IMG/VR virus record: IMGVR_UViG_3300023173_000036
Span: 1 to 40,529 of that record
DNA from: a virus
Lineage: Duplodnaviria; Caudoviricetes
DNA: 40,529 bases
Strand: one strand, 5' to 3'
In this document: one piece after another, positions 8 through 1,015 of the stretch
Numbering within the stretch: the first letter of the stretch is position 1
How the letters are laid out: each line of letters begins with the position of its first letter
Notes under the pieces: generated by a model
What the model was told of the DNA's origin: nothing
Database searches by the model: none
The model's input: the letters and a program-made list of their open reading frames with translations, nothing else
Position numbers and translations under genes: made by a program

Positions 8-35
8 TTGACATTAGTTTCAGAGTCTATACACT
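8..35 (+). promoter_or_regulatory. sigma70-type early promoter
   Basis: TTGACA (8-13), 16-bp spacer, TACACT (30-35) at the left end, facing the early genes. Confidence 0.75.
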
Positions 36-41
36 GGGTAC

Positions 42-315
42 TTATAGAGCAGCTACTCTTAAACAAAGCAACCTCAGACCTCTGGTGGGTTTATAGTTAA
101 GGGTAACACCACTTCAATACACCAGCGTTAGCAACTAAAGAAGCTAGCGAAAAAGTTAGATCAACCTAAACTACTGTTAGTACAGTGGCGGAGATAGCTG
201 AAAGTTAGTAACTTTAGAAACTAGCCGAATACACGATCCTTCGGAAGCAAGTCTTTAGCAGAAACCTTGAAGTAGCCACTGGAACGCGTCCTACATGGTA
301 GCATGGTTGATCATC
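42..315 (+). ncRNA. candidate structured non-coding RNA / early leader
   Basis: No ORF in the track; complementary segments 82-87/120-125, 126-132/143-149, 159-166/305-312, 171-180/291-301, 183-189/275-281, plus 135-141/252-258 and 111-117/267-273. Confidence 0.5.
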
Positions 316-330
316 TTCTTTACTCTTTAC

Positions 331-360
331 TTATGGCTACTGTCTTTGTAGTGGTCATAA
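331..360 (+). promoter_or_regulatory. intergenic hairpin, possible RNase III processing site
   Basis: TTATGGCTACT...AGTGGTCATAA stem with G-U pairs and no U-tract, upstream of the first gene. Confidence 0.45.
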
Positions 361-387
361 CTAAACAGTAATTAAGAGGAAAATAAG

Positions 388-882
388 ATGAGTAAAGTTA
401 AGTTTAATTACAAAGCAGTAACAGCCGACAAAGTAGATCAGCTAATAGCTAACGCTGTTAAGTCAGTCGATACTATGCAAAAGCAAATCCAATATGCCTC
501 TGTAGCTGTTCTACTACATGCTAAGAAACATGGTGACTACTCCAAAGCTAATGACCTAGTGAAGGCATTAGGCAAAGGTGTACGAGCTAAAGCACTGGTA
601 GAATTCTTCGTTAAGTACGGTGGTCTATCAGTAGGCTCAGAAAGTGAAGGTTTTACAGCTTGGAAGGGCAAAGAAGCTATTGACATTGAAGGAGCTAAAG
701 AGCAACCGTGGTGGGAGCTAAAGCCTGAACCAGTGTTTAAAGGTTTCGATCTACATGAGCAGATTGCTAACCTAGTGGCTAAAGCCGAGAAGATGCAGAT
801 AGAGGCAGCTAATGATCCCGCTAAAGCTAAGCTAATCTCAGTTAGCAAAGAAGATCTAAGCAAGCTAAAAGCTATTGCATAA
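388..882 (+). CDS. early hypothetical protein (164 aa)
   Basis: AGAGG RBS upstream; first gene after the early promoter. Confidence 0.85.
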   Translation: MSKVKFNYKAVTADKVDQLIANAVKSVDTMQKQIQYASVAVLLHAKKHGDYSKANDLVKALGKGVRAKALVEFFVKYGGLSVGSESEGFTAWKGKEAIDIEGAKEQPWWELKPEPVFKGFDLHEQIANLVAKAEKMQIEAANDPAKAKLISVSKEDLSKLKAIA

Positions 883-891
883 GGGGTCTTT

Positions 892-948
892 ATGAACTTC
901 TTACTCGGCTATGTGCTACTAATGCTAGCTTTCACACTAGCCTTGTAA
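892..948 (+). CDS. 18-aa hydrophobic peptide (MNFLLGYVLLMLAFTLAL)
   Basis: Translated by hand; AAGGGG RBS upstream; entirely hydrophobic. Confidence 0.4.
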   Translation: MNFLLGYVLLMLAFTLAL

Positions 949-993
949 TACTTATGACTAGGCACTTTAAGGAGTGTCTAGCAATAAGTGTTA
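946..993 (+). promoter_or_regulatory. long intergenic hairpin, possible RNase III processing site
   Basis: TAATACTTAT-GA-CTAGGCACT / AGTGTCTAG-CA-ATAAGTGTTA stem with an internal loop. Confidence 0.5.
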
Positions 994-1015
994 TTATATA
1001 CAGGAGTAACCAAGA

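Follow-up and report, generated by a model that had tools for sequence, protein, structure and literature searches.

A gene-free early leader with a predicted RNase III hairpin in a LUZ24/tf-like salt-marsh podophage

Cleavage of a phage early message by RNase III can activate translation, as at the T7 site R0.3 with its translational effect. T7 early transcripts are cut by RNase III at five stem signals, one of them a 49-nt stem, and a single cut can leave a 3′ hairpin that stabilises the RNA (PMC3867540, PMC8708148). A gene-less early unit has been mapped in LUZ24, in which transcripts from five early promoters share one end (998), where no terminator is predicted; the unit TU007 (657–998, 341 nt) contains no gene (PMC10914365, Table S5). 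That paper lists ncRNAs only up to 250 nt, so that TU007 is not among them, assigns no function to the unit, and gives a similar gene-less unit of 522 nt for LUZ19. By eye, the LUZ24 sequence at 657–998 (locus L114) carries several UCCCUA-like repeats, and its homologues occur at 85–95% in 16 records. Large, gene-free and possibly pseudoknotted RNAs are further represented by ROOL, GOLLD, OLE and the raiA motif, which the leader described here resembles in these respects; those families rest on extensive covariation, of which none is seen here, and this leader has no Rfam match.

The leader opens the early genes of an uncultured salt-marsh phage, analysed here as a stretch of 40,529 nt (IMG/VR record IMGVR_UViG_3300023173_000036; hereafter the window). 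The phage is a LUZ24/tf-like podophage, whose TerL shares 62% identity with its counterpart in Pseudomonas phage tf and 58% with the LUZ24 protein. Between a sigma70-type promoter, from which we infer a transcription start near 42, and the first early gene lies a gene-free stretch of ~340 bases (Table 1). The first-pass annotation had described it as lacking a gene, and indeed no ORF of at least 30 aa lies between 100 and 388. Similar to TU007, the leader belongs to this phage lineage, has a comparable length and fills the same slot, which begins at the final sigma70 promoter, stops shortly ahead of the first gene and lies near a phrog_1448-type gene; in both, several promoters precede one 3′ end, a predicted one here, behind a long hairpin without a predicted terminator. 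The two differ in that they share neither sequence likeness nor topology. The T7 early region (PMC8708148, PMC3867540) likewise has a leader driven by a host promoter, an imperfect hairpin of ~50 nt before a ribosome-binding site and more hairpins between early genes (R1.1 and others), whereas for the leader here folding predicts a long closed domain that may include pseudoknots, and its cleavage is a prediction only. By analogy, the leader may work like the early leaders of T7 and LUZ24.

Table 1 Features of the leader and its surroundings, in window coordinates
Feature	Position	Strand	Remarks
Sigma70-type promoter, TTGACA-16-TACACT	8..35	+	scores 10/12; second of two near-identical 36-nt promoter repeats
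BoxA-like 12-mer	54..65	+	10/12, two mismatches (one in core) to the consensus; inside the 40-nt motif shared with 1.204.O
P1 stem	82-87/120-125 (82..125)	+	loop holds PK1 segment 111-117; pair probability ~0.37 in 42-390
P2 hairpin	126-132/143-149 (126..149)	+	7 bp, one G-U; pair probability ~0.91
P3	159-166/305-312	+	pair probability ~0.91 in 42-390
P4	171-180/291-301	+	pair probability ~0.51 in 42-390
P5	183-189/275-281	+	pair probability ~0.61 in 42-390
Domain enclosed by P3, P4 and P5	159..312	+	complementarity and folding
Proposed pseudoknot targets (PK2 252-258, PK1 267-273)	252..273	+	complementarity; unproven
Long imperfect 3′ hairpin	314..380	+	27 pairs in all, core 331-360; without U-tract; predicted RNase III site
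First early gene, phrog_1448 family	388..882	+	product 25% identical to LUZ24 gp2
Sister intergenic hairpin	945..994	+	21 pairs; after the first gene; predicted second processing site

The leader had been placed at the left end of the genome and called the first transcript of the phage, and neither description holds. The window starts at an assembly break in a repeated promoter, and an identical contig (L001) places 1527 extra bases upstream, between the last and first base of the window. Position 1 of the window therefore does not mark an end of the genome, and "first transcript" is wrong; in addition, a second promoter copy lies 300 nt earlier and RNA contigs cover L001 1234–1333, upstream of both copies. 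Longer transcripts therefore probably enter from further left, unless that upstream RNA cover is antisense. The two 36-nt promoter repeats flank a 300-nt cassette (L001 1298–1633, directly upstream of window position 1) that holds a promoter copy, a hairpin and, as read from the letters, an ORF of 51 codons; the cassette is missing in L007 and L035, and forms with and without it were found in the same DNA runs. GCGC is nearly missing from the whole window (3 copies versus 79 expected), likely reflecting restriction-site avoidance, and AGCT, TAGC and CTAG are two- to three-fold over-represented.

We read the locus as a gene-free early leader that host RNase III releases at the 3′ hairpin, leaving a folded RNA. 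We put the chances of this explanation at about even, and favour it because the hairpin has no U-tract, pairs with the Shine-Dalgarno sequence, has a sister after the first gene and parallels the T7 signals. The first-pass annotation had suggested that a hairpin at 331–360 could release the RNA; a strong hairpin fitting an RNase III-type site is present there, while its cleavage stays a prediction. The 13-bp core (331–343/348–360) stands out from shuffled sequences (z −4.6, 1/200 shuffles), and the base of the hairpin pairs with the Shine-Dalgarno sequence of the next gene (374–380). RNase III signals between early genes are expected to have ~20 or more pairs, and the hairpin has 20 at 321–370 and 27 at 314–380; since such sites are degenerate, no sequence test proves one. 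A search for intrinsic terminators gave 0 terminator-like sites in 1–2500, and no U-run follows the 3′ hairpin. The sister hairpin has a 12-nt motif in common with it, and these are the only two plus-strand copies of the motif in 40.5 kb. In folding calculations, the Shine-Dalgarno sequence is unpaired with a probability of 0.11–0.12 in the intact leader and of 0.56–0.94 when the RNA starts at 335–361.

In the mechanism that we propose, host RNase III would cut the leader off the message at the 3′ hairpin. The cut would unmask the ribosome-binding site of the first gene and thereby activate its translation. A folded RNA of ~300 bases would remain and likely accumulate, with the long-range helices P3–P5 possibly protecting the released fragment. 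A 7-mer at 54 recurs at 321 (54–62, 321–328, 372–378), and each of its copies could base-pair with the Shine-Dalgarno region. Vibrio phage 1.204.O has a comparable duplication in which two differences compensate each other; on this single example, the arrangement is a possible switch.

The stretch is present in 14 salt-marsh runs of 2018, perhaps from one campaign, nine of which are RNA runs. Six of these nine and two of the five DNA-type runs were examined, the first four having been chosen as partial holders. In three metatranscriptomes the leader contig was 9–11 times deeper than that of the next gene (X11, 89.6/8.9; X12, 100.3/9.5; X13, 34.9/3.8), a step that is a weak hint, since contig depth cannot rank genes or give strand, ends or level. 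Next-gene contigs begin at window positions 374 (X11), 356 (X12) and 384 (X13). Leader contigs end variously, at 301 with adapter (X11), 247 (X12) and 382 (X13), and also at 315. Among the DNA runs, X10 and also X3, from which the window may derive, span the junction evenly in one contig (depth 19.1 and 18.1). Run X14 covers the leader only, and missing cover elsewhere was not counted as evidence. No variant in 42–390 was found in the 8 runs, and 13/13 copies compared were 100% identical.

Several observations run against release by RNase III: factor-dependent premature termination would yield an identical depth step, the leader contig ends differ between runs, and two of the six RNA runs (X1 and X7) bridge the leader–gene junction in single long contigs. 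The bridging contigs likewise count against the earlier suggestion that a separate RNA is made, whereas transcription and over-representation of the leader, weak as contig evidence, and the 341-nt parallel in LUZ24 speak for it. Collectively, these data indicate that the stretch is probably transcribed as a gene-free RNA of ~300–340 nt separate from the mRNA.

The fold of the leader was then compared with shuffled sequences. All seven complementarities listed in the first-pass annotation (7/7) are present at their coordinates, and the minimum free energy (MFE) structure of 78–315 contains P1, P2, P3, P4 and P5. Overall folding is no better than in shuffles, which also weighs against the RNase III reading: the MFE of 42–365 has z −0.15 (47/100 shuffles equally good), and the domain 159–312 has z −0.95. 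Watson–Crick stems of at least 7 bp number 5 versus 2.2 expected (19/300 shuffles), again not beyond chance. Only P1+P2, taken alone (z −2.6, 3/200 shuffles), and the 3′ hairpin stand out in stability. The candidate had been presented as a compact pseudoknotted RNA, and pseudoknot-aware packing did not rise above chance (−87.8 versus −84.5 ± 6.0 in shuffles, 79/300 of which match).

These values bear on a simpler explanation, which we consider rather unlikely, that the stretch is an ordinary spacer whose helices are mostly fortuitous and that the step in depth reflects promoter-proximal polarity or premature termination. Consistent with a spacer, z is near 0 for 42–315 and 159–312, and self-complementary words abound in the genome (TAGC 347 and AGCT 419 versus ~150 expected). 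Additionally, in LUZ24, tf and UFV-P2 gaps of 300–560 nt separate the first gene from the nearest early promoter before it, and in all close relatives examined the gap sequences are unrelated to that of the window. A spacer would not lead one to expect the conserved motifs carried by several other leaders, nor the nesting of P3, P4 and P5 together with complements to both loops, which is uncommon. Across phages the slot is usually not random, because 9/20 other leaders reach a folding z of −3 or below, versus −1.5 here (30 shuffles each), and several carry conserved motifs.

In the proposed topology, two adjacent hairpins both pair their loops over 7 bp into a closed domain. With 7-bp pseudoknots it occurs in 35/9423 shuffles, 2/291 tiles of the same genome and 1/25 other leaders, and with 6-bp pseudoknots in 322/9423 shuffles; the descriptor was drawn after the structure had been seen, so the significance is overstated. 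Both PK1 segments (111–117 and 267–273) are unpaired in the MFE structure of 78–315, indicating that PK1 is compatible with the nested leader fold as modelled. PK2 would pair a segment in the P2 loop (135–141) with 252–258, which a competing local helix occupies in the same structure, and PK2 is doubtful in this model. With the four pseudoknot segments kept open, the nested fold has −49.1 kcal/mol, and the PK duplexes add −5.6 and −5.1, versus a free MFE of −57.5, with loop costs left uncounted. Modelled in this way, the pseudoknotted and free folds are nearly equal in energy, and the pseudoknotted fold is possible, not preferred. The double pseudoknot is thus unproven in our models, neither supported nor refuted, and its topology is missing from the nearest candidate relative.

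A trans-acting RNA with a compact double-pseudoknot fold, matured by the RNase III cut and capturing a host protein or a defence system as decoy or sponge, seems unlikely to us, if worth considering. The decoy and sponge roles are speculative; a folded RNA acting in trans is suggested by the rarity of the topology, the closeness in energy of the pseudoknotted fold to the MFE with loop costs uncounted, the roughly ten-fold depth step, and a strongly covarying pseudoknot motif that other phages keep in this slot (described below). Against it stand the post hoc descriptor, the local helix competing with PK2, the candidate relative without the topology, and searches that found neither a homologue nor covariation.

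The leader was not recognised as a known family in the first-pass annotation; an Rfam 15 search was empty within 42–314 at E up to 10. No model in Rfam 15, including ROOL, GOLLD, OLE, raiA, known ribozymes and tmRNA, reached its gathering threshold, and the best match, of an miRNA model to the 3′ hairpin, stayed below threshold (25.5 bits versus 52). No homologue was found by blastn of 1–600 and 44–90 against 50,697 phage records. Searches with the protein of the first gene returned identical copies and 3 loci at 38–47% in viral contigs, 3 identical and 18 at 35–51% in metagenomes, and none in genomes. Terminase and primase as anchors gave three relatives at 72–77%, all ending before the leader region. 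Two close protein relatives are 85% and 64% identical. DNA-pattern searches matched only this phage and 1.204.O, and 33 other loci were judged unrelated. L140 was rejected as a leader relative after inspection of its sequence, and the likeness of L043 (alignment z 3.9) was unconvincing, its matches being scattered. A single-sequence model of 155–315 found only itself in 42 loci with filters and 11 without, with nothing else below E 0.3. None of these searches yielded a homologue usable for covariation. A literature search, whose cover excluded subscription papers and bioRxiv supplements, found no description of the leader RNA or of the GCUGA motif discussed below.

The best candidate relative is the leader of Vibrio phage 1.204.O (MG592574.1; L003 1965–2323), which is alike in slot and length and shares a 40-nt 5′ motif with the leader here. 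It gave the best global alignment of 24 leaders (z 4.5, 0/300), and its outline is similar, with a pair of 5′ hairpins, a domain of nested helices and a hairpin at the 3′ end; its own fold has z −3.2. The two leaders differ past the 5′ motif, where likeness is weak (local 557/1000, global 6/1000). By structure profile 1.204.O ranks only 5th of 24, and it shows no pseudoknot topology even with 5-bp helices.

Part of the shared 5′ motif resembles boxA. The boxA consensus, a put-like two-hairpin arrangement and the hammerhead core (CUGANGA, stem II, GAAA) served as reference patterns. The leader might be a cis-acting antitermination element, in which the boxA-like site and the two adjacent hairpins would make host RNA polymerase processive across the early genes, an idea that we hold to be decidedly improbable. 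The boxA-like 12-mer does lie ~12 nt after the inferred start, and perfect boxA occurs in 4/28 loci, each time at the left end and on the plus strand. However, the window holds 8 equally good matches versus 8.06 expected, the 1.204.O copy of the motif has lost the U-run while a better boxA lies elsewhere in that phage, and a ten-fold fall in depth past the leader is not what processivity would suggest. The perfect sites lie just after early promoters at podophage left ends (L002 2343, L005 2055, L119 561, L122 965), and near matches occur in L003, L116, L117, L121 and L123.

Leaders of other phages contain a different element, a pseudoknot motif of ~85 nt composed of GCUGA, a 6-bp stem, GAG and two hairpins. 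It sits in early leaders of Drulisvirus-like, Melnykvirinae and Vibrio phages (L005 2647–2730, L032 1038–1120, L030 1176–1253, L047 613–687, L002 2729–2818, L059/L054/L071 about 537–620, L120 1094–1176, L119 1177–1261, L122 1627–1711 and L123 3186–3265). Both sides change in 16/19 pairs across 9 sequences, with the structure drawn from the same 9 sequences, four of them close kin and one helix out of register. A model of the motif (R1) finds four leaders outside its training set, those of Ahp1, PP2, fHe-Yen3-01 and Spp16, and the motif has no match in Rfam. Searched against the leader here, the model gave nothing at E up to 10 with filters off, except 3.1 bits on the promoter; a permuted match in the window, suspected by eye, failed the model test. 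The GCUGA motif is better supported than the leader's own pseudoknot and is present in cultured phages. The leader thus belongs to no Rfam family, nor to the GCUGA motif. IME180 and GP100 share by eye yet another leader motif with conserved blocks (L117 ~1000–1200, L118 ~1145–1330), unrelated to the leader of the window.

Hammerhead-like cores lie before early genes in tf, SCYZ1, UFV-P2, LUZ24 and GP100 (L113 ~1105–1132 and 2699; L115 ~1225–1255 and 2805; L116 1167 and 3282; L114 2415; L118 573–644), with the Rfam threshold reached only for GP100. An unrecognised self-cleaving ribozyme that releases the leader in place of the hammerheads of relatives is extremely unlikely in our judgement. It would fit the cores that directly precede the first gene in UFV-P2 and, as judged by eye, those at this place in tf and SCYZ1, as well as the Rfam type II hammerhead at the left end of GP100. 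The long hairpin already explains release, however, and the ribozyme reading offered in the first-pass annotation finds no Rfam ribozyme family matching and no hammerhead core in the window.

The protein of the first early gene has a confident predicted fold (pLDDT 94) with no clear structural match, and its sequence look-alikes are all hypothetical; the absent match indicates neither novelty nor function. The phrog_1448 family is widespread, with 1236 representatives at 50% identity, and most often takes first or second place among the early genes. A suspected link to an H-NS degrading factor was dropped, as the literature search found no supporting publication.

Taken together, the leader RNA is real, uncatalogued and probably expressed, and its pseudoknot is unproven. 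A broader proposal, which we regard as doubtful, is that the early leader of T7-like and LUZ24-like podophages is a slot for swappable structured RNAs that are matured by RNase III or by hammerheads and act in trans as infection begins; here the slot would hold a host-protein decoy of ~300 nt, with two 5′ loops docked into a three-helix domain and some ten-fold more abundant than the adjacent mRNA. Podophage early leaders are usually treated as promoter spacers, and across phages this slot holds unrelated folded RNAs, namely the covarying pseudoknot motif, hammerheads, boxA sites and the leader here. If the released fragments are only processing by-products, the finding is ordinary. If they act in trans, they would form an overlooked class of immediate-early phage effectors, and such action is testable in the cultured phages LUZ24, Ahp1, PP2 and 1.204.O.
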